Of a DNA stretch of 17,469 nucleotides, positions 1 through 15,135 are shown piece by piece. Position numbers and translations under genes: made by a program. The notes under the pieces were generated by a model. It worked only from the letters and a program-made list of their open reading frames with translations. It searched no databases and was not told the origin of the DNA. Origin of the DNA: a virus; the IMG/VR virus record IMGVR_UViG_3300045988_160567, positions 1 to 17,469 of that record; one strand, given 5' to 3'. Within the stretch, counting starts at the first letter, position 1, and each line of letters begins with the position of its first letter.

Positions 1-284
1 GGGGTATATATACAGAAATCGTCACATCTTCCCCATCCGTCACACCTGTAACATCCGTAACATGATCTGCATCACACACCCTCTAGAACGCGTTGTAACC
101 CACCTAGAACGGACGAAAAAATCGGCCTAGGCGTGGACACACACCCACCATGGCGATTGCTTCTAGGGCCCTTACAGCGCGTCTGAGGCCCATCTGGGCG
201 GGCTGGGTTCGGCGTTGTGTCTCGGGATCACCCGCCGGCTGTTTGTGGCCCACGTCACACCAATTCTGGTGAGGCGCATCACAG

Positions 285-450
285 CGGGCGCCTGTCAAGG
301 GCATTCTGTGTGGCGTTGGTCACGCACCCTAATTAACCGATCGGTTAAATGGCGCGCACCACAATCACGGTTTGTCAAGATCGAGCGAGCGTGGCGTCGG
401 TCACAAACTGTCCCTAAATTAACCGGCCGGTCGGTTGGTGACCGACCGCA
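285..450. repeat. Two tandem ~80-86-bp modules inside ITR-L, mirrored at about 17020-17185
   Basis: Each module has four parts in the same order. First, GGCGCATCACA / GCGCGCACCACA (274-284, 352-363). Second, TGTCAA, which is TTGACA on the other strand (293-298, 373-378). Third, GTGGCGTTGGTCAC / GTGGCGTCGGTCAC (310-323, 391-404). Fourth, CCCTAA(A)TTAACCG followed by a palindrome (333-348, 419-438). Confidence 0.7.
333..348. promoter_or_regulatory. Perfect 16-bp palindrome TTAACCGATCGGTTAA, candidate protein-binding site or operator
   Basis: Read directly from the sequence. An identical copy lies in ITR-R at 17121-17136. A related partial palindrome, TTAACCGGCCGGT (419-431), sits in the next module. 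Confidence 0.45.
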
Positions 451-462
451 CACGAAACTTGG

Positions 463-491
463 TTGACATGGGCAGTCGTCGGTGCCATTAT
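463..491 (+). promoter_or_regulatory. Left early promoter (sigma-70/SigA-like)
   Basis: TTGACA (463-468), a 17-nt spacer ending in TGc (extended -10), then CATTAT (486-491). It lies about 50 nt upstream of the first left gene. The same architecture is present in ITR-R. Confidence 0.6.
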
Positions 492-495
492 TAAG

Positions 496-516
496 CCATC
501 ACCACAGAGGTGACGG
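496..516 (+). promoter_or_regulatory. 5' UTR hairpin or operator-like palindrome just downstream of the left early promoter
   Basis: CCATCACC-ACAGA-GGTGACGG, an 8-bp stem with one mismatch. The ITR-R copy (16953-16973) forms a perfect 8-bp stem, CCATCACC/GGTGATGG. Confidence 0.4.
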
Positions 517-540
517 AATCGAACAGAGAGGTACAGAAAG

Positions 541-993
541 GTGATTAGCAAGATTCTGGATGATATGACGCTCGATTGGGATTACGCCAGTGAGAGGAAG
601 GCGATGAGCCGGTCCTATTCCGGCCGAATCGTGTTCGGATGGTACTTTTTCATCATGGCGGGGGAGAATGGTTGGACCGGCTTCGTCGAGAATAAGATCT
701 ATGCCTTCAAGCGCTTCGAAGTCTCTTCGGACGATGAGACGGCCCTCACGCTTATCTTGAATAAGATGAAGGCATTCATCGCAGTTGTTCAGGACTTCCG
801 ATCAGCGGTCGCTCGGGAATCGAGTGATCACATCTATAACCGCATTCCGTCCGATGACGCGATTATCGGATTGTCCGGTCCGTACGGCAGTCGGATTAAT
901 GTTATCGAGGATCGCGTTGGCGGATGGCACGCCATTGGCGGCGGACGGTACTGTGACATGGTTAGCCGTGTCATTACTATGATGGGGCTGTGA
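541..993 (+). CDS. Hypothetical early protein (150 aa), first gene of the left early operon
   Basis: GTG start 6-8 nt after the RBS CAGAGAGGTACAGAAAG. Its stop overlaps the next start (GTGATG). I recognise no motif. Confidence 0.7.
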   Translation: MISKILDDMTLDWDYASERKAMSRSYSGRIVFGWYFFIMAGENGWTGFVENKIYAFKRFEVSSDDETALTLILNKMKAFIAVVQDFRSAVARESSDHIYNRIPSDDAIIGLSGPYGSRINVIEDRVGGWHAIGGGRYCDMVSRVITMMGL

Positions 994-1451
994 TGATTTC
1001 CTTTAGCGACTCTTTGATCAAGTTCATTCTTAACGAGACATTCGGAGTCAATTCTTTCGAACTGGCGGGCGACGTCTATCACTTCAATAACGGTGTCAAT
1101 ACTCATGGTTCCATCACTCGCGATGAGACGGGATGGATTGTTCGATACAATCTCACGCCCGTTGAGATCGTGGTGAACCAGAATGGCGGTGAGGCGGATG
1201 ATTTGATCACTGCTCTTGATCGGGCTAATGCGTTGGCCGATTCCGCGCGCATGATCTTGGAGAGGGTCGCGGACCGTGGTTGGGAACCCGTGAGTCATGC
1301 GAAGCACTCGGTTTGCCGATTCTATAAGGACGGCGTTACTGCGACTCTTTATCAGAACATTTCCCGTACGTGCCCGTTCAGTGTTGTGGGGCCGCACGCG
1401 GCCGTGACCGATTTCGTTGTTGCGGGGAAGGGCATGGTGGATTGGCGATGA
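990..1451 (+). CDS. Hypothetical early protein (~152 aa)
   Basis: The start (GTG 990 or ATG 993) overlaps the upstream stop. The gene is co-oriented and tightly packed. No motif recognised. Confidence 0.7.
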   Translation: MMISFSDSLIKFILNETFGVNSFELAGDVYHFNNGVNTHGSITRDETGWIVRYNLTPVEIVVNQNGGEADDLITALDRANALADSARMILERVADRGWEPVSHAKHSVCRFYKDGVTATLYQNISRTCPFSVVGPHAAVTDFVVAGKGMVDWR

Positions 1452-1867
1452 CGCAGGTTTTCAAGTGGTTTGTCAATGATATTCGCATCGTTTCGGACGA
1501 GCCGAGGGTCGTTCGAGCCGATTTCAACAATTATGACGTTGCGGTGTTCAGTGATGAGAGCGGGTTCTGGCGCGTAAAGATTCTGGGGAAAGATTTTATT
1601 GTCAAGATTCCCGGGACGCCCGGGTTCAGGATCGCCTTTGTTCAGGCACTCAGACTTTCCGAGGAAATGCAAGCGGTTACTGACGCGCTTATGGATGCGG
1701 GGTACAGGAAGGTGGATCCGCTTCATTATGAGTGGGTGATTTTTGAGTCTCCCGACTATAATTGGGTGAGCATCTCCCCCACGGGGGCGAATAGTGATCC
1801 TCGTGGGGAGTGGGGCGTCTACTCCCACAGTGATTCGGTGAGGCGGTCGTTAGAGAGGTTTGCATAA
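1448..1867 (+). CDS. Hypothetical early protein (139 aa)
   Basis: I chose ATG 1448 (MTQVFKWF...), which overlaps the upstream stop as ATGA, over the longer 1370 start that would overlap the previous gene by 82 nt. It shows weak similarity to the 990-1451 product. Confidence 0.7.
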   Translation: MTQVFKWFVNDIRIVSDEPRVVRADFNNYDVAVFSDESGFWRVKILGKDFIVKIPGTPGFRIAFVQALRLSEEMQAVTDALMDAGYRKVDPLHYEWVIFESPDYNWVSISPTGANSDPRGEWGVYSHSDSVRRSLERFA

Positions 1868-1885
1868 GTGTGAGGGGATCGGATA

Positions 1886-2137
1886 ATGTTATCTGAGGTT
1901 ATTGCGGAAGTGGCCGAACACGGCCATGCTAATGTGTCTGATCCGTATGGCGGGCCGTATCTCGCTAGGATATGGGAGGATGATGGTAAGTTGAAGATGG
2001 TCCGCATGGCGAACCATCAGAATGTCATGCTGGTTGTGTGTGATTCTTGGGATGATTTGGCGTGGCATTTCCAGGCTGAACCCACGATCTATCCGCATGC
2101 TCGTCTGTTTCCGTTCCACATCGGAGAGAAACCATGA
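1886..2137 (+). CDS. Hypothetical early protein (83 aa)
   Basis: ATG preceded by the RBS GAGGGGA. The ATGA overlap with the next gene suggests translational coupling. Confidence 0.7.
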   Translation: MLSEVIAEVAEHGHANVSDPYGGPYLARIWEDDGKLKMVRMANHQNVMLVVCDSWDDLAWHFQAEPTIYPHARLFPFHIGEKP

Positions 2138-2460
2138 TCGCACTCTTTTATGACAAGCGGCTTGATCCGCATCGTGTGAAGTGCTCGGTGTACGGGCGCA
2201 ATAGTGGGAAGTTCCGGATCGCATTCCGATTCCGGGGCTGGACTCATATCATGGTGACCAATAGGGTTACTGGGGCCATGTGCCTCGAGTGCCCGGTAAC
2301 ACGATATTTTAGTTACACTAAGGATGATGCCATTAAGGGCATGACGGAGGATGAAGCCGTCTATCACGCCCTGAACATCATGGTCACGGCGGCTTACAAC
2401 GATATCGTCGTGGTCGCGCGTCCGGGGGAGTCCCGGCGCGAGTCTCGGAAGGAGAACTGA
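2134..2460 (+). CDS. Hypothetical early protein (108 aa), basic C-terminus
   Basis: ATG preceded by GGAGAGAAA. The ORF fills the gap exactly. No motif recognised. Confidence 0.7.
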   Translation: MIALFYDKRLDPHRVKCSVYGRNSGKFRIAFRFRGWTHIMVTNRVTGAMCLECPVTRYFSYTKDDAIKGMTEDEAVYHALNIMVTAAYNDIVVVARPGESRRESRKEN

Positions 2461-2462
2461 AC

Positions 2463-2801
2463 ATGTCCATCAATTCTTATGGCGCTCCCCTGTCTTTCGT
2501 GGATCGTCTGGCTCTGCTCACGAATGCTGAGTCGCTTTATCAGGCGGCGCGTAGTGGCGATTCTTTCGTCTGCGTGAGGGCGGTCATCGGTGAGGTGACC
2601 GGGGATGACGGGGAGGCCCGTGACGTCGCCTATTTCCAGGCGGAGGGCGGCGTCTGGTACCGATCGAGCGCCAGTATCCCGTTGGCTGTGGCGCGCGCGC
2701 TGATCGCGTCGGATGATGCTCCGGAGTCTGTGACTCTGACGCCTGGTACGGCGACGTCGAGGTCGGGCCGGGAGTACACTACGTTGAGTGTTTCGGCCTG
2801 A
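2463..2801 (+). CDS. Putative ssDNA-binding protein (phi29 p5-like), 112 aa
   Basis: Strong RBS GGAAGGAGAA. The gene sits just upstream of the terminal protein and polymerase genes. The segments GDDGEARDVAYFQAEGGVWYRSSASIPLAVARALIAS and VTLTPGTATSRSGREYTTLSVSA resemble my recollection of phi29 p5. The function is tentative. Confidence 0.5.
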   Translation: MSINSYGAPLSFVDRLALLTNAESLYQAARSGDSFVCVRAVIGEVTGDDGEARDVAYFQAEGGVWYRSSASIPLAVARALIASDDAPESVTLTPGTATSRSGREYTTLSVSA

Positions 2802-2857
2802 GTCGAGGGAGGTGATGGGCGGCCCGTCAATATTATTGGCGGGTCGTCCGTTATATT

Positions 2858-3823
2858 ATGAGTGAGTTGGATGATCTTCGTGATGCTGTGCGCCGGGAGA
2901 ATCGGCGCGCGGGGAGGAAGTTGGCGTCTATCGCCAAGGGTACGTATGGTCTGCGTGGGCCGCTGGCGTATATGCGCGGGAAGGTCGAGGGTGTGGACGT
3001 TCGGGGCACTGAGTATGATCCTCGTGTGCCGGGCAGGCGCGTGGGGAGGATGACTACTGCGCAGGCTCGGGTCGCGTTGGAGCGTCTCACTGAGTTCAAT
3101 AACTCAAGGTCGGTGGGATTTTTCAGGGGAGTCGGCGGCGCGGTGATTTCTCGAAAGAATATGGCGGCGTACGCGTATGAGACGCGTCGGTATAATGAGG
3201 AACGTGCGGAATATCGTGCGCGGACGGCTAAGGTTCCGACGCCGTGGTCGGGGTTCGGGCGTACGGCTGAGGAAGTGCTGTCTTGGACGCGTCCGTCGCC
3301 GTGGGAGGCGCCTAAGAATCCTTTTGAGGATCATTTTGATCGTAAATTGCCTCTCCCCCAGCAGATCGTATCGGATGACGCCGCTAAGAAGTTGGCGGAT
3401 CATTTGGCGGAGGCTCGGTTGCCGCGTGGGTATGCGCGGCGGGCGGCTTTGGTGCGTGAGAATATTCGGGATATGGTGGCGCGCACGGGTGATAAGGATT
3501 TGCTGGAAACTATTATGGGCATGGACGATGAGACGCTCATGTTCGTGTGGACGGTGGACGGGACGCTCGCACGAAATATTTCATTCCGCTATGAAGCGGT
3601 GAAATATCTTGAATCGCCGCATCCGCGCACGAGTGAAGAAAAGTTGAAGTCGCGCACCGAGAACTTCCTCATGGGAATGGAGGATTCCCGCGCCGAGTTG
3701 GATCAATATTTGAAGGAGCTTTCCAGTGTCCGTGTCCCGTCGGCGCAGTCGTCGCAAAGGCGATCCTCTGGACGGCGTGGCGGTCGCGGATTTCGAGACG
3801 GACGCGGACGTCGCCGCCGATAG
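2858..3823 (+). CDS. Putative terminal protein, the primer for protein-primed replication (321 aa)
   Basis: The gene lies immediately upstream of, and overlaps, the protein-primed polymerase gene, as phi29 gene 3 does with gene 2. The N-terminus is basic. TAQARVALERLTEFNNSRSVGFF...VISRKNMAAYAYETRRYN is weakly similar to the phi29 terminal protein as I remember it. The C-terminal tail is Arg/Gly-rich. Confidence 0.65.
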   Translation: MSELDDLRDAVRRENRRAGRKLASIAKGTYGLRGPLAYMRGKVEGVDVRGTEYDPRVPGRRVGRMTTAQARVALERLTEFNNSRSVGFFRGVGGAVISRKNMAAYAYETRRYNEERAEYRARTAKVPTPWSGFGRTAEEVLSWTRPSPWEAPKNPFEDHFDRKLPLPQQIVSDDAAKKLADHLAEARLPRGYARRAALVRENIRDMVARTGDKDLLETIMGMDDETLMFVWTVDGTLARNISFRYEAVKYLESPHPRTSEEKLKSRTENFLMGMEDSRAELDQYLKELSSVRVPSAQSSQRRSSGRRGGRGFRDGRGRRRR

Positions 3824-5426
3824 TACTCACGTGTGGGCGTGGTGTCTGCGTGAGGTGAATGCTGAGTGCGGGTACCAGTACGGCACGACTATTGATTCGT
3901 TCATGGCCCGCGTCCTGCATTCCGGGCTGGACGTGTATTTCCACAACCTGCGCTTTGACGGCAATTTCATTATCTACTGGGCTCTGACGCACGGTTACAA
4001 GCACATTGAAGTGGATTCGTCGAAGGATATCATCCCGGAGAATCACTTCTCATGTCTCATTGATGACATGGGGATGTTCTACGCGATTCGATTCCCGGAC
4101 GTCATCTTCAAAGACTCGCTCAAAAAACTGCCCATGACGGTCGGGCAGATGGCGAAAGCGTTCGAGTGCGATCAGGGGAAGGGCGAGATCGACTACACGC
4201 TCCCCCGTCCGGTTGGGTATGAGCCGACGGCGGCTGAGTGGGAGTATGTGCGCACGGATGTGAGTATCGTGGTGACGGCGTTGTCTGAGGTGATTCGTGA
4301 GGGTATGCGGGCGTTGACTGTGGCTTCGGACGCCCTGCACGAGTTCAGGGGCCTTTTCGGTTGGAAGAACTTCGAAAAATACTTCCCGCGCCTGCCGCTC
4401 GATATTGACGCGGATATTCGACGCGCATACAGGGGCGGTTTTACGTACGCGGATCGGCGGACGGCGGGGATGCTGGTTGAGAATGGGTCGGTTTATGACG
4501 TTAATTCTTTGTACCCGTATGTGATGCGCGAGCGGCCGCTCCCCTATGGTGTGCCGGTGCGTTTCGAGGGCGGGCCGCCGTCGGATGGTCTGTGGGTGGG
4601 TCATGTGACGCTGACTGCGCGGATCAGGCCAGATCATATTCCGTGCATTCAAGTGAGGTCGGGGTTTCGTGGTTCGTCGTCGGAGTATGCCGATGAGATC
4701 GTGGAGCCGACGACTTTCAGCGTGTCTTCGGTGGACTGGGCGCTGTGGAATGATCAGTACGATATTGAGGTTTACGCTTGGGATGGTGGCTGGCGGTTCG
4801 CGTCGCGACGGGGGTTCTTCGATTCTTATATTGATAAATGGGGCGCGATCAAGGCCGAATCCAAGGGCGGGAAACGGGCCATGGCGAAACTGTACCTTAA
4901 TTCTTTGTACGGGAAGTTCGGCAGTGGCACCGATGCGACGGGTCGCGTGCCCGTGATGGAGGATGGTGCCGTGCGTCTCGTGCAGGGTAGGGCGAGGACG
5001 CGTGAGCCGGTTTATACGGTGTTGGCGGTTTTTGTGACGTCATGGGCTCGGGACTATACTATTAGGACGGCGCAGAAGAATTATGATCGCTTCCTCTACG
5101 CGGATACTGACTCGCTGCATCTTCTGGGCGCTGAGGATCCTGTGGGTGCGGATGTGCATCCGACGCGGTTGGGTGCGTGGGCGCATGAGAGCGACTTTGA
5201 TAGTGCGGTTTTCAACCGGGCAAAGCAATACTGTGAGAGTAAAGACGGCATTAATGATACCCACATCGCCGGCCTGCCCCGCCACCTGGGAGACAAAATC
5301 TCCCCCATTGACATGTTGCGCGATCAATGTTGGGGCGGTAAACTAGTCCCGAAGAGGATTCCGGGCGGCGTGATCCTCCGAGAGACTTATTTCACATACG
5401 CCGCAGTGAGAGGAAGATCATCGTGA
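3726..5426 (+). CDS. Family-B, protein-primed DNA polymerase (phi29 gp2-like), 566 aa
   Basis: All expected motifs are present: ExoI ADFETD, ExoII HNLRFDGNFI, ExoIII YVRTDVSIV, AYRGGFTY, motif A DVNSLYPY, motif B KLYLNSLYGKFG, motif C LYADTDS, and the KxY motif RAKQY. The GTG start at 3726 lies 7 nt after the Shine-Dalgarno sequence AAGGAG (3713-3718). Confidence 0.97.
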   Translation: MSVSRRRSRRKGDPLDGVAVADFETDADVAADSTHVWAWCLREVNAECGYQYGTTIDSFMARVLHSGLDVYFHNLRFDGNFIIYWALTHGYKHIEVDSSKDIIPENHFSCLIDDMGMFYAIRFPDVIFKDSLKKLPMTVGQMAKAFECDQGKGEIDYTLPRPVGYEPTAAEWEYVRTDVSIVVTALSEVIREGMRALTVASDALHEFRGLFGWKNFEKYFPRLPLDIDADIRRAYRGGFTYADRRTAGMLVENGSVYDVNSLYPYVMRERPLPYGVPVRFEGGPPSDGLWVGHVTLTARIRPDHIPCIQVRSGFRGSSSEYADEIVEPTTFSVSSVDWALWNDQYDIEVYAWDGGWRFASRRGFFDSYIDKWGAIKAESKGGKRAMAKLYLNSLYGKFGSGTDATGRVPVMEDGAVRLVQGRARTREPVYTVLAVFVTSWARDYTIRTAQKNYDRFLYADTDSLHLLGAEDPVGADVHPTRLGAWAHESDFDSAVFNRAKQYCESKDGINDTHIAGLPRHLGDKISPIDMLRDQCWGGKLVPKRIPGGVILRETYFTYAAVRGRSS

Positions 5427-5614
5427 CTGAGGACCGGATGTGCAATATTTCCACTACTATTCCGCGCAATCTCTACGATTATGTGGACGACATGCACTGG
5501 CGCGAGCGGCGCAGCATCGCGTCAATCGTGCGTGACGCGATCCGAGACTGGGCACTGGCCCGCGGATGGGAGGATTGTGATACTCTTTTCTCGCAGGATT
5601 CCGAAGCGCAGTAG
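5423..5614 (+). CDS. Small ribbon-helix-helix (CopG/Arc/MetJ-like) DNA-binding protein, 63 aa
   Basis: ISTTIPRNLYDYVDDMHWRERRSIASIVRDAIRDWALARG fits a strand-helix-helix pattern. The GTG start overlaps the polymerase stop (GTGA) and follows the RBS GAGAGGAAG. It is the last gene of the early operon. Confidence 0.65.
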   Translation: MTEDRMCNISTTIPRNLYDYVDDMHWRERRSIASIVRDAIRDWALARGWEDCDTLFSQDSEAQ

Positions 5615-5700
5615 GCGCCCCGTCGAGATCGGCTCGCCGTGATAGGTGCTCGACGGATGTGATCGCAGGCCCCTGCCGCTACTGCGCGCGGGTGATTCTG

Positions 5701-5709
5701 TGTTATATT
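5701..5709 (+). promoter_or_regulatory. Candidate extended -10 element (TGTTATATT) of a late promoter
   Basis: TGn plus TATATT sits immediately upstream of the late operon. There is no recognisable -35 element, so the promoter may be activator-dependent. The call rests on sequence pattern only. Confidence 0.3.
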
Positions 5710-5754
5710 GGGACGGGGAATTGGATTTCAATTCCCCGTCCCGCTCTTTTATTT
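5710..5754 (+). terminator. Rho-independent terminator ending the left early operon
   Basis: Perfect 14-bp stem GGGACGGGGAATTG (5710-5723) / CAATTCCCCGTCCC (5729-5742) with loop GATTT, followed by GCTCTTTTATTT. Confidence 0.75.
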
Positions 5755-5767
5755 GAGAGGAAATGTG

Positions 5768-6076
5768 ATGGCTGAGTTTTCAGATCTCATCGCAGCACTG
5801 CAGTCCGACTCCCCGCCTGAGAGTATTTATGATGACTTGACCGCCGCCTACGGTGAGCGCGCACAGCTGGCCGAGTCGGCTGGCGCCCGTGTGGCCGAGC
5901 TGGAGGCGGCCAATGCCGCGCTCCTGGCGGAGATCGGGGACCTCAAGGCCCGGAATTATGACCTTCTCGTGCGCGTGGGGGATGATTCCCCGGCCGATTC
6001 GGGAGATTCCGGGGCTGGCGAGGATGAACGGGCGGAGACCATTACTGTGGATGATCTTTTCAAGGAGGATGAGTGA
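5768..6076 (+). CDS. Scaffolding protein (phi29 gp7-like), 102 aa
   Basis: ATG 5768 follows the RBS GAGAGGAAA. The protein is acidic with a helical coiled-coil character (AELEAANAALLAEIGDLKARNYDLL). Its C-terminus ETITVDDLFKEDE resembles phi29 gp7 ETITIEDLEAK. The gene lies directly upstream of the capsid gene. Confidence 0.8.
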   Translation: MAEFSDLIAALQSDSPPESIYDDLTAAYGERAQLAESAGARVAELEAANAALLAEIGDLKARNYDLLVRVGDDSPADSGDSGAGEDERAETITVDDLFKEDE

Positions 6077-7476
6077 TCGTGGGACGCAATCCCGGCGTTA
6101 TCATTGACGCCAACAACCAAGATGTACTGAACGCGATTCGGAATGGGGCGTCGTTTGATTATCAGCGGCGTATTCCGGCGGCCACGCAGGCGAATGTCTC
6201 GGAGGTCCTGGGCACGCTGACGCGCTATCGTCCCCTTTACAATGAGTTCTGCGACGCGCTCGTCAACCGAATCGGCCTCGTGGTCGCCCGGAATAACATC
6301 TGGACGAATCCGTTGGCCGTTTTCAAGCGCGGCAATATTGTGCACGGATCGCAGATCGAGGAGATCCAGACGGGTCTTATCGAGGCGCGCGAGTACTCTC
6401 CTCAGCGCGATTATCTTGAGGGCGAGATCTTCGGGCAGAAGCGACTGGACGTTCGCTCCGCATTTCACACGGTGAATCGCCAGAATTACTATCCCGTGAC
6501 CGTGAATGAGGCGATTCTCCGCCGTGCGTTCCTCGAGGACGGCGGCCTCTCCTCGTTCGTCTCCCAGGTCATGTCCGCGCCGACGACGTCGGATCAGTGG
6601 GACGAGTTCCTGCTCATGACGTCTCTTTTCAAGGTCATGGACTCCACAGCGAGTATTTTCCGCGTCAAGTCGCCGAATCTTCAGCCGCTGAGCGCGACGG
6701 CCGAGGATGCCCGGGCTGCGCTCAAGGTCCTACGGGCGACGGCCGGGCGGCTGGGATTCCTGTCCACCAATTATAATCCCGCGAGGATGCCGACTTTCGC
6801 GTCCCCCGAGGATCTTGTCATCTTCGCGTCCCCGGAGTTCGTCGCGAATATTGACGTGGAGGCGCTCGCCGCGGCGTTCAATATGGACCGGGCGGACGCG
6901 CCGTCGCGGATTATTCAGATCCCACAGGAATGCTTCGGGATCACTGAGTGTCAGGCGATTCTGACGACGCGCGATTTCTTCATGGTCGCGGACACGCTCA
7001 TCGAGACGCGTTCGCAGATCAATCCGGTCGGGCTCACGACGAATTATTTCCTGCACCATCACGAGATCATTTCGGCGTCGCGTTTCGCGCCGTGCGTGAT
7101 GCTGACGACGGGAACTGCGACCGTGATCCCGGCCGCCCCGAAGGCGCCGGTCCTGGGCGCGCTGACGGTGAAGCGGCTGGACGGCTCGGATGTGCCGGCG
7201 ACGGGCGCGGTGCCGGGGGAGACGCTTGTCGTGTCCGCTCCCGTGACCGGGGGCGATGGTTTCGAGTGGGGTATTGATTTCGAGGTCAGATACAATCTGT
7301 CCTCGAAGACGCGGATCGATAATGAGGGCGTGCTCACGATTTCCCCGTCGGAGAAGGGTGGTTCGCTCACGATCGTGGCGTCTCTCGCCTACAGGCCCGC
7401 GGATAATCCTCAGGCCGCCCCGAGCGAGAAGAATGCGTCGATCAAGGTCGAGATCGCGAAGGCGATCAAGGAGTGA
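6073..7476 (+). CDS. Major capsid protein (phi29 gp8-like) with a C-terminal Ig-like (BIG2-type) domain, 467 aa
   Basis: Several segments resemble phi29 gp8 as I remember it: DVLNAIRNG, NRIGLVV, IEEI, FHTVNRQNYY, AFNMDRAD, DFFMVADTL and NYFLHHH. The C-terminal ~100 aa are beta-rich and Ig-like. The start is GTG 6073 or GTG 6079, after AAGGAGGA. Confidence 0.93.
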   Translation: MIVGRNPGVIIDANNQDVLNAIRNGASFDYQRRIPAATQANVSEVLGTLTRYRPLYNEFCDALVNRIGLVVARNNIWTNPLAVFKRGNIVHGSQIEEIQTGLIEAREYSPQRDYLEGEIFGQKRLDVRSAFHTVNRQNYYPVTVNEAILRRAFLEDGGLSSFVSQVMSAPTTSDQWDEFLLMTSLFKVMDSTASIFRVKSPNLQPLSATAEDARAALKVLRATAGRLGFLSTNYNPARMPTFASPEDLVIFASPEFVANIDVEALAAAFNMDRADAPSRIIQIPQECFGITECQAILTTRDFFMVADTLIETRSQINPVGLTTNYFLHHHEIISASRFAPCVMLTTGTATVIPAAPKAPVLGALTVKRLDGSDVPATGAVPGETLVVSAPVTGGDGFEWGIDFEVRYNLSSKTRIDNEGVLTISPSEKGGSLTIVASLAYRPADNPQAAPSEKNASIKVEIAKAIKE

Positions 7477-7485
7477 CGATTTCGC

Positions 7486-7517
7486 GGGCGCCCGGGAATA
7501 TTATTTCCCGGGCGCCC
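7486..7517 (+). terminator. GC-rich hairpin after the capsid gene, a possible attenuator or RNA-stability element
   Basis: 13-bp stem GGGCGCCCGGGAA / TTCCCGGGCGCCC with loop TATTAT. No T-tract follows it, so it is probably a partial terminator or a processing/stability element. Confidence 0.4.
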
Positions 7518-7533
7518 GGGAAAGGATTATCGA

Positions 7534-9660
7534 ATGTCTTCGGCTTTTGACCCGGTTAATGATCCCGGCGATTTCGGGCTTGATTTTTCATACGCCACCT
7601 GGACGCCCGGCACTACTGTGACGCTGTGTAATGTGCCGTGGGACATGGGCTACCGCAACGTGGTCTGGTACAAATCCGACGAGGAATGTTTCCGCGATAT
7701 CATCGCGAACGGCCGCAGCATTGAGATCACGGCCATGACGTATTGCGCGCACGGGCGTCCCGTGCGGATTCCGACGTCTTTCACGGACGCCTCGAAGTAC
7801 AATTACTGCGTCGTCCGGAACGGGCGTGAGGGCGGCGCCCGCCCGAAGATGTATTTCTATTTCATCACGTCCGTGGAGTACGTCGCGCCCGGGACTACGC
7901 AGATCACCCTGCAGCTGGACGTGTGGCAGACGTGGGTGCGCACCGTGAAAATGGGCCGCTGCTATATCGAGCGCTCGCATTTCGTCGAGGCATGCCAGCC
8001 GGCCGGCGACGGCGCCGTGGCACTCGATTACATGCGGAAACGGCTCACGGTGGCCGAGGGACTGGACATGGGCTCCGATTATGTGACGCGCGATTTCATG
8101 CGCAAACCGTTGGCCGACCCTCTGGGCGGGGATCCCGCGCCCGTCGTCGTCATCTGCGCGACCACTAATCTCACGACCGCGTACGGCACCGTGGATAAGC
8201 CGGAACTCAAGACGGCGACGGGCTCCAGTGCGGAGATGCTGCCCAATGGGTGCGAGATCTGGGCGGTGAAGATGAAGGATTTCTCACCCATGATCACCCA
8301 CCTGAAGGATTACCCGTGGGTGTCCCAGGGCATCATCTCCATCACCATGGTACCGGAGTCGGCGATCTTCAAGCACGTGTTCCTGTCACAGAATCCGCAG
8401 AAACTCAACGGCGGCGCCGGCCCCGCGTGCCTCTACTCCATGAATGTGAACTCGGGGGAGGAGCAGCACGTCCGCGTGGATATTGATTTCGCCGGCGATC
8501 TCGTGCACTGGATTCGCAGCACAATTCCCGAACGGTACCGGAGGTTCATGAAGTTCGCCTGCTACCCGTACGCGGCGATCGAATTGACGACGTACACGGC
8601 GACGCCCATCGTGCTCAAGCCCGAACTTTTCGGATCGCCGTCATTGCGAGTCACGCAATTGTCCCACGCCGTGCCGCCCAATCCGCGGATCATGTTCTTC
8701 CCCATGTCCTATGGTGACCGGAAGACGCAGTGGGGTAATTTTGACGACGACGCGGGCGAGTACCTGGACATGGCGGTCGGCATTTCTAACTTGCCGACTT
8801 TCAGTGTGCTCAATAACGGGTACCTGTCCTATATGGCGTCCAGCGCGCATTCGATCGCCTATCAGTATCAGGCGGCGGACTGGTCGCAGGCGAAGGCGCA
8901 GATGGCCGCACAGACCGCATACAATATCGCGGGGAATAATATTGCCACTTCGGCGGCGATCACCAACCAAAGCAACGCGAATATGGGGCAGCAACAGCAT
9001 GTCCGCAACATTCAAAACGCCGCTAATACTGGGCTCGGAATGGTGGGCTCGCTGGCAGGCGGGAATATTCTCGGTGCCGTGACCCAGGGTGTTTCCGGGT
9101 ACGTGAATTATGAGGCCGGGAACGCGCTCACTCAATTGTCCCAGCAAAATGCGTCGGCGATCAACGCGATTCAAACCCGGTCCGGGAACCAACAGCGGGA
9201 CATGAACCTCGAATTGGCGAACGCGACGCGGCGCGGGGATTATCAGTCCGCCATCGCGGGAATCAATGCGAAGACCCAGGATGCGCGGCTCATTCAACCG
9301 ACGACGTCCGGTCAGGTGGGCGGTGAGGCATTCGTCCTGGCGGCGGACCAGTGGAAGCTCGTGGCGAAGATCAAAACGATCCCGGATGGGGCGATGCGCA
9401 CCATCGGGGAGTACTGGCTGAGGTACGGGCAGGCGGCGAATGTTTTCGCCCGGCTCCCCGTTGATTTCCTGTGCATGACGCATTTCACGTACTGGAAGTG
9501 TCTTGAGGTGACGTGCACTTCCCAGTCCTGCCCGGAGTCTTTCCGGGCGACGATCTGCGGTATACTGGAGCAGGGCGTCACGGTGTGGCGGAATAAGGCG
9601 CACATCGGGAATATGGATTACGGTGAGAACAGGCCACTGAAGGATTGGAGTGATCAGTGA
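7534..9660 (+). CDS. Tail knob / distal tube protein (phi29 gp9-like), 708 aa
   Basis: The N-terminal region (VTLCNVPWDMGYRNVVW...KYNYCVV...MYFYFITSVEYVAPGTTQITLQLDVWQTWV...CYIERSH) parallels phi29 gp9 (ADVPFSNDYKNTRWF...WFYAFVTELEF...HFEIDVLQTWMF...FIVREH). Its position after the capsid gene also fits. Confidence 0.88.
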   Translation: MSSAFDPVNDPGDFGLDFSYATWTPGTTVTLCNVPWDMGYRNVVWYKSDEECFRDIIANGRSIEITAMTYCAHGRPVRIPTSFTDASKYNYCVVRNGREGGARPKMYFYFITSVEYVAPGTTQITLQLDVWQTWVRTVKMGRCYIERSHFVEACQPAGDGAVALDYMRKRLTVAEGLDMGSDYVTRDFMRKPLADPLGGDPAPVVVICATTNLTTAYGTVDKPELKTATGSSAEMLPNGCEIWAVKMKDFSPMITHLKDYPWVSQGIISITMVPESAIFKHVFLSQNPQKLNGGAGPACLYSMNVNSGEEQHVRVDIDFAGDLVHWIRSTIPERYRRFMKFACYPYAAIELTTYTATPIVLKPELFGSPSLRVTQLSHAVPPNPRIMFFPMSYGDRKTQWGNFDDDAGEYLDMAVGISNLPTFSVLNNGYLSYMASSAHSIAYQYQAADWSQAKAQMAAQTAYNIAGNNIATSAAITNQSNANMGQQQHVRNIQNAANTGLGMVGSLAGGNILGAVTQGVSGYVNYEAGNALTQLSQQNASAINAIQTRSGNQQRDMNLELANATRRGDYQSAIAGINAKTQDARLIQPTTSGQVGGEAFVLAADQWKLVAKIKTIPDGAMRTIGEYWLRYGQAANVFARLPVDFLCMTHFTYWKCLEVTCTSQSCPESFRATICGILEQGVTVWRNKAHIGNMDYGENRPLKDWSDQ

Positions 9661-10550
9661 TGGGCAGGCGCAAGCGCCCCGACCACGTCAAGAATAATAT
9701 CTATGACAATTTCGGCAAGCCTCTTTCTGTAGATAATTCCGCGTCGCGCCGCGACGTCATGGTCACCATGTACACGCGCCTGCTGGAGGACATGGCGCTG
9801 GCGCGGTTCAAATGGCGTAATATGCCGCCCGGGATTGACGTCCGTTATCTTGAGCAGGCCCTCATCCGCAACGGATTGGCGGCCTTCTATTTCGACGCGG
9901 ATTATGATCGATTCATGTGCCTCACCGCCACGCCCGCGGGCGTCGTCAATATGTATGACAATCCGACCGATTTTCAGGTGTACGGCAATTCCATGGTCAA
10001 TAAGGTGATCTCCGGACGCGATTGCATCCCCATCTGGGGCAACCGTACGCGCACTCCCGAACTCGACGCTATCATGATCTTCGCCCAGCGTCTCGCGGAA
10101 ATCGACGTGACATTCGACGTGACCGCGCTCGCACTGCGCCATCCCTACATCATCTCGGCCTCGCAGGATGAGCGCGTGAGCATGATCAATGCTTTCCGCA
10201 GCGTCGCCGACGGCGACCCCGTCATTTTCACGACCGACGCCATGGGGCCCGCGGCGCTCGGTGAGCGGGCCCAGGTCCTGGATATGCGCTTGGAGAAGGG
10301 GACCGTTGCCGATATTCAAGCCGCGAAATCGCGCGTCTGGGACGAGGCCCTCACATATCTGGGCGTGAAAAACGTGAATGACGATAAGCGCGAAAGAATG
10401 GTGGTAGAAGAGGCCGTCGGCAGCATGGGACAGGTCGCCATGATGCGCACCGTGAGCATCGGCCCGCGCCGCGATGCGGCACGGGAGATCAACAGGAAGT
10501 ACGGACTCGACGTTATTGTTGAGTGGGCGCCTCAGGAGGATGAGATCTAA
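9657..10550 (+). CDS. Portal / upper collar connector (phi29 gp10-like), 297 aa
   Basis: FKWRNMPPGID, FAQRLAEID, DPVIFT and VWDEALTYLGVKNVNDDKRERMVVEE match the conserved connector motifs ([45 protein letters not shown]). The start is GTG 9657 or ATG 9660. Confidence 0.95.
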   Translation: MMGRRKRPDHVKNNIYDNFGKPLSVDNSASRRDVMVTMYTRLLEDMALARFKWRNMPPGIDVRYLEQALIRNGLAAFYFDADYDRFMCLTATPAGVVNMYDNPTDFQVYGNSMVNKVISGRDCIPIWGNRTRTPELDAIMIFAQRLAEIDVTFDVTALALRHPYIISASQDERVSMINAFRSVADGDPVIFTTDAMGPAALGERAQVLDMRLEKGTVADIQAAKSRVWDEALTYLGVKNVNDDKRERMVVEEAVGSMGQVAMMRTVSIGPRRDAAREINRKYGLDVIVEWAPQEDEI

Positions 10551-11281
10551 TGGGCGAGTACACGCTCGAACTGCGTGAGATCGTTGAGGTCTGCGACGTC
10601 GCCGGGCTCGCGCTGTCCGATTATCCGATTTGGGATGAGGGGCACCGGGCCGCGCTCAACGGCAAAATCATTGACCATTATTGGTATCATGAGATCGCTC
10701 ATGAGACCTCCGATCAATTCATCCGGCGTCTGCGCACGAAAATGCGTGAGATCATGCCTTTCTACTGCGAGTACGCGAAAACTCTGCCCGACGCCGAGAT
10801 CATGATGGCTGACGTGGATATGACGGTGGCGTCGGACGGGCGCGCCAGTAATAAATCCGGGCTGGACTCGCGCACCACGACTAAGGATGAGTCCTCGCAA
10901 GAGAGCGCGTCCAATACTGACACCGCCTCGAAGACGCGGGCCGTCAATTCGGAGGCGCCCCAATCCCGGCTCGCGGGAAACGCCGATTACGCCACGAGCG
11001 CCGTGGATACTAATTCGTCGGGCGATTCTCGCGCCACGGGCACCCAGAAAAACACCGGCACCGGCGATAATCGCACCAATACCGCCTCAACGGGCGAGGA
11101 CGAATCCCACAATATCACGCGCACCACGGGTCGCGGCAGGCCGGCGGCCGAGATGATCGCCGCCTGGCGTGCGACCATCGCGAATATTGATATGATGATC
11201 GTAGAGGACCTGTCCGGGCTCTTCCTGTCCGTCTGGGGCCTTGACAGTACATTCACCGACCGCTACCCGACCTATTGGTGA
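10550..11281 (+). CDS. Lower collar / tail tube protein (phi29 gp11-like), 243 aa
   Basis: Synteny supports the call. So does the N-terminal pattern DYPIWDEGHRAALNGKIIDHYWYHEIAHETSDQF...KMREIMPFY, which is typical of picovirus lower collar proteins. The central region is rich in Ser, Thr, Asn and Asp. The start overlaps the upstream stop as TAATG, after AGGAGGA. Confidence 0.85.
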   Translation: MGEYTLELREIVEVCDVAGLALSDYPIWDEGHRAALNGKIIDHYWYHEIAHETSDQFIRRLRTKMREIMPFYCEYAKTLPDAEIMMADVDMTVASDGRASNKSGLDSRTTTKDESSQESASNTDTASKTRAVNSEAPQSRLAGNADYATSAVDTNSSGDSRATGTQKNTGTGDNRTNTASTGEDESHNITRTTGRGRPAAEMIAAWRATIANIDMMIVEDLSGLFLSVWGLDSTFTDRYPTYW

Positions 11282-11294
11282 GAGGACCAATACT

Positions 11295-12794
11295 ATGACG
11301 CTCATCCCCGATAATTATTTCATCCGCCCCAGGCGCGTCAATGACATCGTCCCGCTCACGCGCACCGACGGATACACCTACCTCGAGCTACTCGAGAAGG
11401 TACGCGCCGCCGTATCCGACGTAATTGATTACTGCAATAAGTTCGGCGACGACATCGACGATATTATCAAGGACGTGAACAATACTGTTGACAAGTTCAT
11501 CAAGGACGTCGCCGCGAACCTCACCGAATATGACGCGCATATCGACGCGCGCAAGAAGGAAATCGCCGACCTTCACAAGGCCACAGAAGATTTCATTACC
11601 GAGTTCAAGTCCAAGGTTATTACGGCGCATTTCCAGACCGACGCGACCGGCGATAACGCCACGGCACCGACCGCCGACCCCCAGGTGCGCATCAGCATGC
11701 TCACCACGGCCGGCGCCAGCCGGCTCCGAGACGCCCTCACCGCACTCATAGAGGCCGAGCGCACCGCACGAGTCCAGGCGCAGACCGACGCCGCGAGCGC
11801 CGCCGACGCCGCCCACGAGCAGCTGCGCATCTCGATATCCCAGCGACCCACGCGGGAGGAGGGCGCCCGGCTTTACGCCCCGCACACGCGGGACAGGGCG
11901 GTTTTCATCGGGTCCTCGAATGCGACCGTGAATGACAGGTGGACGCAGGATCTGTGCAATCATTTCGGTTGGGCGCACCATAATTTCGCGATCGGCGGCG
12001 GCGGATTCACGTCCTCCGCCAATTCGTCTTTCCTTTATCAGACTCAGAACGCGATTTCGAATATGTCTGAGGACCTTCGACGCGGGACCGGCTATTTCTT
12101 CGTCGCCGATATGCTCAACGATATTCGCGCGAACAATAATGTGGAAAGCCAGGCGGGCACGGTTTTCCGGCTCATCCGGAATAATTTTCCTAACGCGAGG
12201 ATCATCGTCATCCCCGTTTTCCTGAGCACGTCGCCCATGAATAAGTCGGTCCAGACGGCCCATTCCGCGAGCGCGCGCGAGAACGAGGCCGACCGGGCCG
12301 GCCTGCCCTTCGACGTCGAAATCATCCGCGGCTCGCAGTCGTGGTTCTACGCCACGCCCGGAGAATCCTCCGCCACTAATGAACCGGGCGGCGGCGTGCA
12401 TTTCACCGAGGCCGGCTACACGCAGGCCCGCATGTACATCCAGCGCTACATTTACGGCGGGGATACCTGGCGCAATTTCGGCTGGGAGAATCTCTACCCG
12501 CAGAGCACCGATAAGGTGGACCGTAATTTCAATTATCTGCGCGTCAGCCGATTCCACCACTTCGTCACCATTGACGGAAGTTTCCGCGTCGGCGGCGCCA
12601 CCGCCGGATATGACAGCGTGCTCATGAATCTGCCGCTCTGGGCAACACCCTATGAGTCGGCGTATTTCACCGTGTACGGTCGCGACCGCAGCCCTAGGGT
12701 CGTTTATGTTAATGATAAGGGACAACTCGCGTGCCGGGATCAACTTGCCCAGTGGGAGTACTATGACGTGAACGCCACATGGCGCATTTGGTGA
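11295..12794 (+). CDS. Tail appendage / receptor-binding protein with an SGNH (GDSL-type) esterase domain, 499 aa
   Basis: The gene sits where phi29 gp12 does. The N-terminus is helical coiled-coil. The SGNH blocks are VFIGSSNA (block I Ser), FAIGGGGF (block II Gly), ADMLNDI (block III Asn) and GGGVHFTEAGY (block V His). The tail is beta-rich. I preferred ATG 11295, after GAGAGGA, over the 11241 start. Confidence 0.75.
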   Translation: MTLIPDNYFIRPRRVNDIVPLTRTDGYTYLELLEKVRAAVSDVIDYCNKFGDDIDDIIKDVNNTVDKFIKDVAANLTEYDAHIDARKKEIADLHKATEDFITEFKSKVITAHFQTDATGDNATAPTADPQVRISMLTTAGASRLRDALTALIEAERTARVQAQTDAASAADAAHEQLRISISQRPTREEGARLYAPHTRDRAVFIGSSNATVNDRWTQDLCNHFGWAHHNFAIGGGGFTSSANSSFLYQTQNAISNMSEDLRRGTGYFFVADMLNDIRANNNVESQAGTVFRLIRNNFPNARIIVIPVFLSTSPMNKSVQTAHSASARENEADRAGLPFDVEIIRGSQSWFYATPGESSATNEPGGGVHFTEAGYTQARMYIQRYIYGGDTWRNFGWENLYPQSTDKVDRNFNYLRVSRFHHFVTIDGSFRVGGATAGYDSVLMNLPLWATPYESAYFTVYGRDRSPRVVYVNDKGQLACRDQLAQWEYYDVNATWRIW

Positions 12795-12800
12795 GTAAGC

Positions 12801-14147
12801 ATGGCTTTTGACGCGCAGCATAAAGCCTGCATCATCGCAACACTCGCGCAAGTGGAGGCGTCCGGCAATTATGGCACGATTACCGCGCCGGACACGCTCT
12901 CACTGGGCATCGGGCAGTGGACCCAGGGCCGCGCATATGACCTGCTGAAAAGATTCCCCGCGGGCACGGACTTCGGCGCCACGGTCAATTCCTGGCTCGC
13001 CCAGGGCCGGGACTCGTGGACGATTTCCGCACGCAAATACCAATACCTCAATTCAGCGGACCGGGCGGCATTATCCGGCGCACTCGCATCCCAGACGGGC
13101 CACCAAATCCAAGACTCCCAGATGGAAACGGACCTGACAAATGACTATATTCCCCGGTGCGCCGAACTCGGCCTCGACCCCGAAACCGAGACCGAGGCGT
13201 GCATGCTCCTAATAGTGGTCATGCACCGCTGGGGAAATTACGCGCGCATCCTGACCCGCCTCGCTGAAGGCGCCGGCCACCCTGCCACACTCGATTCAAT
13301 GTTCGCCGCCGTAAAAGCCGAAGGCGAATACGCCGCCGTACCCGGCCGCTATGACACGGCCGTCCCCATGATCCGAAACCTCCAGACAAATGGGGTCCAG
13401 ATCACGGGCGGCGACGGCAGCCAGCCCGGCGCCGGCTACAAACCGGGCGACGATTCAGGCGGGAAATCCCCGAAGGATCAAGTGAAATTGGAGAAGAATA
13501 AACTTCCCCTTTACGTCAGTAAATCGGGTTCCAACTTAATTCTCCACTACGCCGACGGGCGCACCATCACAGCCAGCCCCACACCCACAGGAGAGCACTG
13601 GCAGATATCCACATCCCAAGCGATCCACACGGGATCCACCGGCATCGGCACCGGACAGGCCCCGCCCGGCACCGGAGGCCAGCCCGGCGGCGGCGGCGGC
13701 GGCACAGCCGACGAGCGCATCCACAGGATGACCCAGGAGGCGCTGTCCACGCTCGGGAAATACGTCTACCACCAATGGTATCAGCCGCGACTTCATCCCG
13801 ACCAGTCCGGCGTATCCGACTGCTCCGGATGGACCTGGTACCTCATGATGAAATATTTGGGTGTGGATATTGACCCCAATGGCACGGCGGCAATTTGGGA
13901 TTCCCCTACCGGCTATGTAGTCGCCCAAGGTTCGGGGACATTCAACGCCGTGTCCCAGATCAAGGAGGGCGATTTGATCGTCTGCCGATGGTGGAGCGGC
14001 GGCGGCCACATAGAATACTGCCCCCAAACCGCCACCGACCTGTCCGTCGGAATGCGCGGACCCGACGGCGCAATGGGCCCCAACGGGCCATCGCCCGCCA
14101 CGTCACTTTTCACCGGATGCGAATGGAAATTGAAGCGATATGTCTGA
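12801..14147 (+). CDS. Tail-associated cell-wall hydrolase (phi29 gp13 analogue), 448 aa: lysozyme/transglycosylase-like N-domain, Gly/Pro linker, NlpC/P60-type cysteine peptidase C-domain
   Basis: The N-domain QVEASGNYG...LGIGQWTQ is SLT/lysozyme-like. The linker is GIGTGQAPPGTGGQPGGGGGGT. The C-domain has DCSGWTWYLM (catalytic Cys) and WWSGGGHIEYC (His). The position matches phi29 gene 13. Confidence 0.8.
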   Translation: MAFDAQHKACIIATLAQVEASGNYGTITAPDTLSLGIGQWTQGRAYDLLKRFPAGTDFGATVNSWLAQGRDSWTISARKYQYLNSADRAALSGALASQTGHQIQDSQMETDLTNDYIPRCAELGLDPETETEACMLLIVVMHRWGNYARILTRLAEGAGHPATLDSMFAAVKAEGEYAAVPGRYDTAVPMIRNLQTNGVQITGGDGSQPGAGYKPGDDSGGKSPKDQVKLEKNKLPLYVSKSGSNLILHYADGRTITASPTPTGEHWQISTSQAIHTGSTGIGTGQAPPGTGGQPGGGGGGTADERIHRMTQEALSTLGKYVYHQWYQPRLHPDQSGVSDCSGWTWYLMMKYLGVDIDPNGTAAIWDSPTGYVVAQGSGTFNAVSQIKEGDLIVCRWWSGGGHIEYCPQTATDLSVGMRGPDGAMGPNGPSPATSLFTGCEWKLKRYV

Positions 14148-15135
14148 CTACTATGATTTCGGAAATCTGCTCTCACGCAACGGGGTATTCAACATGGTCG
14201 TGGGCGCCCGCGGCGTCGGCAAAACCTACGGCGCCAAACTCATGGTCATGAAGAATGCCATTGAGAAGGGCGAAGAGTTCGTCTACCTGCGCCGCTACAA
14301 AACAGAGATGCGAACCACTCAGACATTCTTCGCCGACGTCGCCCACGAATACCCGCGCCACAATTTCCGAGTCAACGGCGGCGAGGCGCAATATAAGGAG
14401 AGGGGCGCGCGGAAATGGATCACGTTCGGCTATTTCGTGGCACTCTCCACGGCCCAGAAAATGAAGTCCGTGTCCTATCCCAAGGTCACGCGGATCATTT
14501 ATGACGAGTTCATCATTGAGAAAGGATACGTGCGATACCTCCCCGCCGAAGTGGACGCACTCCTATCCTTCTACAGCACTGTGGACCGCTGGCAGGACCG
14601 CACTCGCGTACTCATGCTCGCCAACGCCGTGAGCATTGATAATCCCTATTTCATTAAATGGAATATCGAACCGTGCGGGAAGGAGTTCGTCACGCGGGGC
14701 GACGGTTTCGTGGTCTGCCAGTTCGTCAATTCCGCGAACTTCAGTTCGCGCGTGCGTGAAACGCGATTCGGCCGATTCCTCGAATCAATGGATCCCGTCG
14801 GAGCCGCATACTCCATTGATAATCGCTTCGCCGACTACACCAATGTCTGGGTGGACGATAAACCCGCCGGCGCCACGCCCGTTATCATACTGAGACTACC
14901 CGAGGGGTCGCTCTCGATTTGGACACACAAAGATCTGTGGTATGCTCAGAAACGGCTCCCGAAGACGGACCTGCCACGATTGGCGTTCGATCACGACGAT
15001 TTGCGCGAAGGTGAGGTACAGGTATCCTACAGTGATAAAATCATGGTCATGCTCCGCACGCAATTCCGCCACGGCCGCATGAGATTCGATAGCCCCCAAA
15101 CCCGTTCGATCCTGAAAGGAATATTCCTCAAATAA
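14140..15135 (+). CDS. DNA encapsidation ATPase (phi29 gp16-like), 331 aa
   Basis: Walker A is VVGARGVGKTYG and Walker B is RIIYDEF. FVYLRRYKTE, LANAVSIDNPYF and RETRFGRF parallel phi29 gp16 (FIYVRRYKPE, LSNAVSVVNPYF, RKTRFGRL). Confidence 0.95.
   Translation: MSDYYDFGNLLSRNGVFNMVVGARGVGKTYGAKLMVMKNAIEKGEEFVYLRRYKTEMRTTQTFFADVAHEYPRHNFRVNGGEAQYKERGARKWITFGYFVALSTAQKMKSVSYPKVTRIIYDEFIIEKGYVRYLPAEVDALLSFYSTVDRWQDRTRVLMLANAVSIDNPYFIKWNIEPCGKEFVTRGDGFVVCQFVNSANFSSRVRETRFGRFLESMDPVGAAYSIDNRFADYTNVWVDDKPAGATPVIILRLPEGSLSIWTHKDLWYAQKRLPKTDLPRLAFDHDDLREGEVQVSYSDKIMVMLRTQFRHGRMRFDSPQTRSILKGIFLK

Follow-up and report, generated by a model that had tools for sequence, protein, structure and literature searches.

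At the genome ends of phage phi29, protein p6 forms complexes that act as activators of replication and as repressors of the early promoter C2 (PMC4974454). Published lengths of the inverted terminal repeat in phages of this kind are 6 bp in phi29, 7-16 bp in its Bacillus relatives, 25-30 bp in Clostridium phages and 90 bp in the Microbacterium phage Curie. A terminal repeat that carries the early promoter for two inward-facing transcription units is an established design, according to the GenBank annotation of Mycoplasma phage P1, Streptococcus phage Cp-1 and Actinomyces phage Av-1. Here we analyze an inverted terminal repeat of 545 bp in the IMG/VR virus record IMGVR_UViG_3300045988_160567, the whole stretch of which, 17,469 bp long, is hereafter called the window. 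We consider it probable, at about 0.7, that the window is a complete protein-primed phi29-like genome, most likely of a phage infecting oral Actinomyces, in which the repeat constitutes a composite control region placed at both ends. The repeat and its anatomy, its pattern of conservation, the alleles that it shares with other genomes and the gene content around it are matters of direct observation; the functions attributed to its parts are predictions.

The two arms are delimited by a global alignment of positions 1-620 with the reverse complement of the last 620 bases:

1-545, plus strand: left repeat arm, aligned with the reverse complement of 16921-17469
16921-17469, minus strand: right repeat arm, 549 nt (the left arm is shorter by 4 nt)

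Up to position 547 the arms are 86.5% identical (479 of 554 columns, including 9 gap columns), and BLAST of the arms gives 86.3% over 549 columns (1-545 against 1-549). Identity then drops to 48% in 548-620, just past the start codons of the first gene on each side, GTG at 541 on the left and ATG at 16925 on the right. Together the arms make up 6.2% of the genome, and the remaining inverted repeats in the window, short cross-matches between the internal modules of the arms excluded, reach at most 40 nt at 70-87% identity; hence the terminal repeat lies far beyond chance. Conservation between the arms is distinctly patchy. It is complete in 1-11, 70-132 and 368-443, the last being the longest perfect run (76 nt), and there are other perfect runs at 48-68, 134-149, 159-188, 269-285, 309-329, 331-352 and 496-513; the diverged stretches 12-30 and 190-240 have 68% and 71% identity, respectively. 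The initial annotation, made by eye, had described repeats of about 545 bp and about 85% identity, amounting to about 6% of the genome, with the same perfect and diverged stretches, and the pairwise alignment that it proposed bears out this description, save that the block given as 70-131 extends to 132.

The inner 85 bp of each arm would comprise, in this order, an early promoter with extended -10 element, a stem-loop with which the transcript would begin at its 5' end, and then ribosome-binding site and start codon:

463-491, plus strand: predicted left early promoter, TTGACA, 17 nt, TG-c-CATTAT
16978-17006, minus strand: predicted right early promoter, TTGACG, 17 nt, TG-c-CACTAT, mirroring the left promoter
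496-516, plus strand: left leader stem-loop, palindrome CCATCACC-ACAGA-GGTGACGG, the second half of which is also written GGTGAYGG
16953-16973, minus strand: right leader stem-loop, with a perfect 8-bp stem
526-543, plus strand: left Shine-Dalgarno sequence and start, GAGAGG at 526-531 and GTG at 541-543
16923-16940, minus strand: right Shine-Dalgarno sequence and start, GAGAGG at 16935-16940 and ATG at 16923-16925

In a promoter scan, 463-491 is the best sigma-70-type match of the whole window, with 10 of 12 consensus positions plus the TG. The leader stem-loop begins at the predicted transcription start, placed at about 498 from the position of the -10 box, and the left arm ends (545) about two bases after the start codon. 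We could align the inner 170 bp in 11 repeat copies from 8 genomes; relatives found by protein search and contig look-ups contributed only the inner 25-264 nt of the repeat, and exact-pattern scans of IMG/VR with the repeat blocks returned no contigs beyond those already found. Across the 11 copies TTGAC is invariant and the spacer following it is scrambled in sequence, its length being always 17 nt. The TG, positions A2 and T6 of the -10 box and the TAA after this box are conserved (invariant or nearly so), the leader palindrome is nearly invariant, and CACACGAAAC upstream of the -35 box is conserved together with the AATTAACCG element. Such a pattern is what a functional promoter with its leader would be expected to leave as a footprint. 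All the elements that had been placed inside the repeat at the outset, namely promoter, leader hairpin, ribosome-binding site and start codon, have thereby been located. Promoter activity, its early timing and the co-regulation of the two ends are what we infer from these sequence features.

The patchwork of perfect and diverged stretches raises an evolutionary question: Why do the two arms of the same genome differ? IMG/VR contains five close relatives of the window, with capsid identity of 87-90%. The sister genome L001 (16.6 kb) has two arms that agree with one another at 100% over 542 bp, and their identity to the arms of the window is about 90%. Compared with L001 in 100-bp windows, the sequence under study has a mean identity of 85% and a 95th percentile of 94%, whereas the repeat windows 51-150 and 301-400 reach 97% and 96%; the blocks in which the two arms agree completely are, therefore, conserved across genomes as well. 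This is the comparison with related genomes that the initial annotation had proposed, and the perfect blocks prove not to drift freely. The changes with respect to L001 which are specific to one arm are clustered: those of the left arm in 150-240 (15 vs. 3), those of the right arm in 241-310 (9 vs. 3) and 444-495 (16 vs. 3). The promoter spacer follows suit, for that of the left arm is 94% identical to the spacer of L001 and that of the right arm 82% identical to the spacer of L003 and L005, while left and right spacers share only 47% identity; the arms of L005 are also unlike each other. Given these arm-specific tracts and spacer alleles that recur in other genomes, the diverged stretches appear to be largely exchanged alleles rather than the product of drift in place.

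The mosaic is best explained by two processes acting together: co-circulating relatives would swap segments of the repeat by recombination, and purifying selection would hold the functional elements in place. Protein-primed replication from both ends needs matching termini only, as established for phi29 (PMC4974454), so that imperfect arms would be tolerated. The earlier proposal that the patchy conservation reflects selection on specific elements rather than homogenization of the ends is correct in its first half, given the footprint in 11 copies, the blocks of 96-97% identity and the motifs shared with Av-1 and Curtobacterium phages. Its second half poses a false choice, since homogenization does occur in this clade, as the arms of L001 demonstrate with 100% identity over 542 bp. 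One could go to the other extreme and suppose that the interior is under no selection at all, its perfect blocks being the result of recent gene conversion between the arms and the rest of neutral drift. The complete homogenization of L001 and the tract-like nature of the differences in the window are in tune with this idea. Nevertheless, neutral drift would not leave the perfect blocks 96-97% identical to L001 against 85% genome-wide, nor conserve the inner elements of 8 genomes around a scrambled spacer, nor preserve motifs at fixed positions in phages so distant that capsid identity is only 42-47%, and we consider it highly improbable. Segment exchange combined with purifying selection would instead make this clade a natural example of repeat evolution, in which termini, promoter boxes and leader are fixed and the spacer and other segments are swapped.

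Unequal arms could also be produced by the assembly, if two co-occurring strains with perfect but different repeats and nearly identical bodies had been joined in one contig. Metagenome assemblers do break in perfect inverted repeats, and the contigs of relatives L002-L005 and L116-L123 stop inside the repeat, at about 280-520; moreover, L001 has perfect arms, and related strains do co-occur in single samples, for L001, L003 and L005 all come from 3300045988. There are, however, two further deposited assemblies of the same strain: ERZ27262914 k119_105738 (17,464 bp), a MEGAHIT contig obtained with k=119 in which we checked both arms, and ERZ28660199 scaffold_923 (17,469 bp; sample ZHAN15-1_SAMEA2738017), in which we checked the right arm. 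The same combination of left and right arms is present in the MEGAHIT contig and in the separate scaffold. A single base separates both from the window, at 17368 (repeat position 102 of the right arm), where they have G and the window has A; in those two assemblies, block 70-132 thus has one mismatch between the arms. Since the longest block shared by the arms, 76 nt, is shorter than the k of 119, each arm is tied unambiguously to its own flanking gene. Furthermore, unlike arms exist in L005 and imperfect ones in the isolates Av-1 (94%), Transit (96%) and Cp-1 (97.7% over 352 bp). A chimeric contig is, consequently, quite unlikely. If the arms are genuinely imperfect, as we hold, this is the probable reason why the window was assembled end to end while relatives with perfect arms are truncated in metagenomes, and the complete genomes recovered from metagenomes may be biased towards imperfect repeats.

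Outward of the promoter, each arm contains a terminal part, which adjoins the DNA end, and a longer interior:

1-11, plus strand, mirrored at 17459-17469: putative terminal origin core GGGGTATATAT, shared by the two window arms and the left arm of L001
20-73, plus strand: three tandem 18-bp repeats with CGTCAC/CGTAAC units, adjoining the terminus
29-76, plus strand: origin-proximal motifs, TTCCCCAT at 29-36, GTAACAT at 48-54 and 57-63, CATCACA at 70-76
88-109 and 161-182, plus strand: long-range inverted repeat, within a block 97% conserved with respect to L001
273-345 and 353-431, plus strand: tandemly duplicated module of about 83 bp, each copy having ATCAC..TGTCAAG..GTGGCGTYGGTCAC..AATTAACCG-NN-CGGT
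333-348, plus strand: palindrome TTAACCGATCGGTTAA, within the region of the 83-bp modules

The outer 80 bp or so would function as replication origin, with the GGGG reiteration serving for sliding-back priming by the terminal protein and the polymerase. The reiteration suits such a mode of initiation by analogy with PRD1, where the template ends in 3'-CCCC and initiation occurs at the fourth base, followed by stepwise sliding-back (PMC4974454). At its right end, the L001 locus stops 8 nt short, and the remaining part of that arm matches. The putative origin would also carry elements common to distant actinobacterial relatives: TTCCCCAT, GTAACAT and CATCACA are found at nearly equal distance from the end in L001, Av-1, Thatch, Transit, Prophecy and Fairywren, and a comparable C-run lies near the end in Cp-1 and Mycoplasma P1. 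The phages sharing these positioned motifs have capsid proteins which are only 42-47% identical.

The interior, from about 80 to about 460, would consist of non-coding repeated motifs and palindromes, most likely sites for DNA-binding proteins of the phage or the host that would tune replication or early transcription. The block of the 83-bp modules is 96% identical to L001. The pattern AATTAACCGNNCGGT, corresponding to the AATTAACCG-NN-CGGT element, occurs 7 times in the window against 0.43 expected, and 6 of these occurrences are in the repeats; same-strand [AG]TCACA motifs number 6 against 0.6 expected, in a count made post hoc. The open reading frame 215-466, the only one common to all arms, is not a gene: its substitutions are distributed 13/16/14 by codon position, most of them changing the amino acid. 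This lack of codon-position bias indicates that the interior is non-coding. Origin function and protein binding are what the observed repeat and arm anatomy suggests.

A different view of the interior is that it holds a non-coding RNA gene in two copies, for instance a packaging RNA for a gp16-type motor, instead of protein-binding sites. In this genome, which encodes a full-length gp16 ATPase and a phi29-type connector, no non-coding stretch outside the repeats exceeds about 150 bp, and hardly any coding sequence is as conserved as the repeat interior. Packaging RNA is encoded in phi29 at 147-320 from the left end (PMC11476376), and an outward promoter is annotated inside the repeat of Cp-1. 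Additionally, pairing in the 88-109/161-182 helix would survive its two substitutions in L001, 93 T>C and 178 C>T, only on the plus strand and if G-U pairs are allowed, a weak indication from two sites. Yet a search of the whole window against Rfam, including its Phage_pRNA model, yields no match even at E = 10; folding z-scores of sliding windows in the repeat are no better than -2.5; and alifold on three sequences finds broken pairs at least as numerous as compensated ones, with no net covariation. Outward TTGACA boxes at 298 and 378 must be rejected as promoters, for there is no -10 box at 16-19 nt and no TGnTAnnnT anywhere. Moreover, the structured RNA present at the left ends of Curtobacterium phages is absent here. 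All in all, a duplicated RNA gene seems unlikely, albeit with some arguments in its favor.

That Curtobacterium RNA deserves mention in its own right. In phi29-like phages of Curtobacterium, a conserved structured RNA motif lies upstream of the first gene (SSB), at the following positions:

Curtobacterium RNA motif: L036, 415-480; L111, 448-513; L112, 287-351; L039, 378-447; L042, 536-596

Its closing helix covaries (GAGTGTG/CACACTC, GAGTATG/CATACTC, AATTGTG/CACAATT) around an invariant core, GCGCGGTGAAA...CCGTACAAAGA. The motif has no match in Rfam, and a covariance model built on it, R1, finds none in the window, its clade or Av-1; Rfam searches of the window, Reje, Thatch and Av-1 returned nothing relevant. 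A more speculative proposal, to which we assign a small chance, is that the interior segments of about 80-190 and 245-443 form either a structured RNA in two copies, possibly the packaging RNA of actinobacterial phi29-like phages, or a nucleoprotein array coupling replication initiation with the shut-off of the early promoter at both ends.

Reading inward from the start codons, the two arms face different genes:

541-5743, plus strand: left inward unit, with small genes, terminal protein, polymerase, 63-residue protein and terminator
5709-5743, plus strand: left-unit terminator, a 15-bp stem with T-run
16033-16925, minus strand: right inward unit, with a gene for 78 amino acids (16689-16925) and one for 175 amino acids (16081-16608)
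16033-16071, between the convergent endolysin gene and the right unit: right-unit terminator, a perfect 18-bp stem AATAACCCCGGGACCG / CGGTCCCGGGGTTATT
5423-5614, plus strand: 63-residue protein, candidate ribbon-helix-helix, directly after the polymerase

The hairpin at 16033-16071 is likely a bidirectional terminator. The idea that duplicated control regions face two different inward gene sets, put forward from the first inspection of the window, is thus sustained, insofar as the genes differ and each unit is closed by a strong terminator. Since the cassette is present at both ends, the host RNA polymerase would start both inward units as the DNA enters, and one regulator could control the two. 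A possible regulator acting on the palindromes in both arms is the 63-residue protein, which weakly resembles RHH_1 with E = 0.016 (15.6 bits, against a Pfam cut-off of 20.5) and is similar to the syntenic gp9 of Arthrobacter phage Mendel, annotated as ribbon-helix-helix (pairwise E = 2e-7). Its single-sequence model, with a predicted local distance difference test (pLDDT) score of 66, has an extended N-terminus, helices at residues 15-28 and 32-46 and a short C-terminal helix at 52-60; a PDB fold search with this model gave no match. Among the small early proteins, Pfam and PHROGs recognized no homologue of phi29 p6, although distant homologues could be missed by such searches.

The first gene of the left unit, 541-993, encodes 150 amino acids from a GTG start, has about 52% G+C and matches no family; three relatives were tested for a counterpart, L001, L003 and L004, and none has one. 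Genomes of the clade carry different first genes at the repeat junction, and the junction between repeat and start codon looks like a slot in which different first genes come under one early promoter. At the other end of the left unit (window positions 5700-5760), GTGTTATATT, which resembles an extended -10 element, directly precedes the terminator with the 15-bp stem; this region may be a switch point to late transcription.

The rest of the window has the gene content of a complete linear phi29-like podovirus genome of the protein-primed type, as judged from Pfam families and the homologue of a terminal protein:

2858-3823, plus strand: terminal protein, 28.8% identical over 250 amino acids to the annotated terminal protein of Av-1 (E = 9e-16)
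3726-5426, plus strand: protein-primed DNA polymerase of family B, Pfam PF03175 DNA_pol_B_2 (E = 2.9e-50)
6073-7476, plus strand: phi29-type major capsid protein, Pfam PF25622 Phi29_MCP (E = 8e-102)
9657-10550, plus strand: connector, Pfam PF05352 Phage_connector (E = 9e-44)
14140-15135, plus strand: full-length gp16 packaging ATPase, Pfam PF05894 Podovirus_Gp16 (E = 8e-59)

The terminal-protein gene lies directly upstream of the polymerase gene, and its product matches no family in Pfam or PHROG; holin and endolysin genes are also found by Pfam. The gene order is that of Av-1, including the small reverse-strand genes at the right end, and the closest capsid proteins, 42-49% identical, belong to phi29-like phages of Curtobacterium, Arthrobacter and Actinomyces. 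At the DNA level, no GenBank phage matches the window, either by megablast of the whole genome or by blastn of 1-560. Two side observations concern the body of the genome. Genes from 541 to 16023 are all on one strand, yet the cumulative G-C skew climbs to about 10.9 kb (maximum at 10865) and then declines, a turn that fits strand-displacement replication from both ends rather than an effect of transcription. A hairpin region at 7455-7547, between the capsid and tail genes, probably terminates or attenuates transcription behind the capsid gene; its Rfam matches are all weak and below threshold, and it has an inverted match of 39 nt in L004.

Which bacterium hosts such a phage? A scan of metagenomes with the leader pattern returned 41 loci, 40 of which are chance matches; the single true one is an array of clustered regularly interspaced short palindromic repeats (CRISPR), L049, on a contig of 4,269 bp (ERZ772955 NODE-7178). 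It contains 57 repeats of 28 nt, of the GTAACCCCGCGCGAGCGGGGATGATCC type, and 33-nt spacers, about 35 of the 56 spacers matching this phage clade, some of them exactly (spacer 54 is 100% identical to L004). Spacer 13 matches 16942-16972, the leader stem-loop of the right arm, at 31 of 31 positions, and other targets include 431-454 and many genes. In the genome collection, the repeat of L049 is found only in Actinomyces: A. johnsonii, A. dentalis, A. gerencseriae, A. israelii and the oral taxa 170 and 448. Spacers matching the clade, combined with a repeat confined to Actinomyces, name the likely host genus, and the host is most likely an oral Actinomyces; spacers from cultured Actinomyces genomes do not match the window. 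The name of the source record suggests a study of the oral or gut microbiome.

Several points weigh against the interpretation of the repeat as a composite control region of a complete genome. The three agreeing assemblies represent one strain, one base apart over 11.4 kb, and may share reads. Sequence for comparison of the outer 400 bp comes from three distinct arms only, the left and right ones of the window and that of L001. Promoter, start site and origin are called solely from consensus and conservation, and the -10 box of the right arm, CACTAT, is weak and falls under the threshold of the scan. Finally, the candidate regulator at 5423-5614 remains below the Pfam cut-off, and its model is without a fold match.

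To place the repeat among known phage ends, we compared the ends of 16 genomes and measured the repeat lengths in one and the same way:

Mendel and Tillums: 16 bp, read by eye
Prophecy: 55 bp, 100% identical
Fairywren: 88 bp, 100% identical
Trapezoid: 95 bp, 100% identical
Transit: 130 bp, 96% identical
Thatch: 131 bp, 100% identical
Voltaire: 176 bp, 100% identical
Av-1: 210 bp, 94% identical
Mycoplasma P1: 350 bp, 100% identical
Cp-1: 352 bp (236 bp annotated), 97.7% identical

The description of the arms as unusually long, which had been based on phi29, holds against that phage only, for, Mendel and Tillums apart, related phages have repeats of 55-352 bp; still, the repeat of the window is the longest of the 16 genomes compared. 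It resembles the ends of phi29 in having protein-primed termini with a terminal reiteration and early promoters near both ends, but phi29 has a 6-bp repeat, and the control regions at its two ends are unrelated in sequence. PRD1, of the Tectiviridae, has a terminal repeat about 110 bp long, and early operons are located at either end of its genome. It shares with the window the 3'-CCCC end of the template, while differing in its unrelated virion, its shorter and perfect repeat and its Gram-negative hosts.

Mycoplasma phage P1 (NC_002515) is likewise a small protein-primed podovirus, and its 350-bp repeats make up 6% of a genome of 11.7 kb. A promoter is annotated at 227-260 in both of its arms, orf1 has its first base where the repeat has its last, and there are two inward gene sets. 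In contrast with the window, however, the repeat of P1 is perfect and shorter, host and sequence are unrelated, and its two units span the whole genome, not early genes only. Streptococcus phage Cp-1 (NC_001825) is phi29-like, with -35 and -10 boxes at mirror positions, small reverse-strand genes at the right end and mapped early starts pointing inward, PE1/PE2 on the left and PE4/PE5 on the right. It differs in a shorter and far less diverged repeat, in the outward promoter annotated within it and in a genome of low G+C; a packaging RNA has been reported for Cp-1 (PMC6266182). In the course of this comparison we noted that the terminal inverted similarity of Cp-1 (L109) extends to 352 bp at 97.7%, past the annotated 236 bp, so that both mapped early promoters lie within an imperfect extended repeat.

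Actinomyces phage Av-1 (DQ123818) has the same probable host genus as the window and the same succession of small genes, terminal protein, polymerase, capsid through gp16, lysis genes and reversed small genes. Its ends have TTGAC at 206-210 from both sides (the -35 boxes are annotated at 206-211), a -10 box of the TGCATTATTAA type, and GTAACAT and CATCAC motifs at 59-69 bp from the end. Unlike the repeat studied here, that of Av-1 stops at the -35 box, so that the -10 box, leader and ribosome-binding site are not duplicated, and it is without the 83-bp modules; the capsid proteins are 42% identical. Thus, current understanding of terminal repeats is not overturned by this uncultured phi29-like lineage, which we document here with the longest repeat of its comparison set. 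The repeat is longer and less perfect than in the described systems and reaches through the leader to the start codon, as it does in P1.

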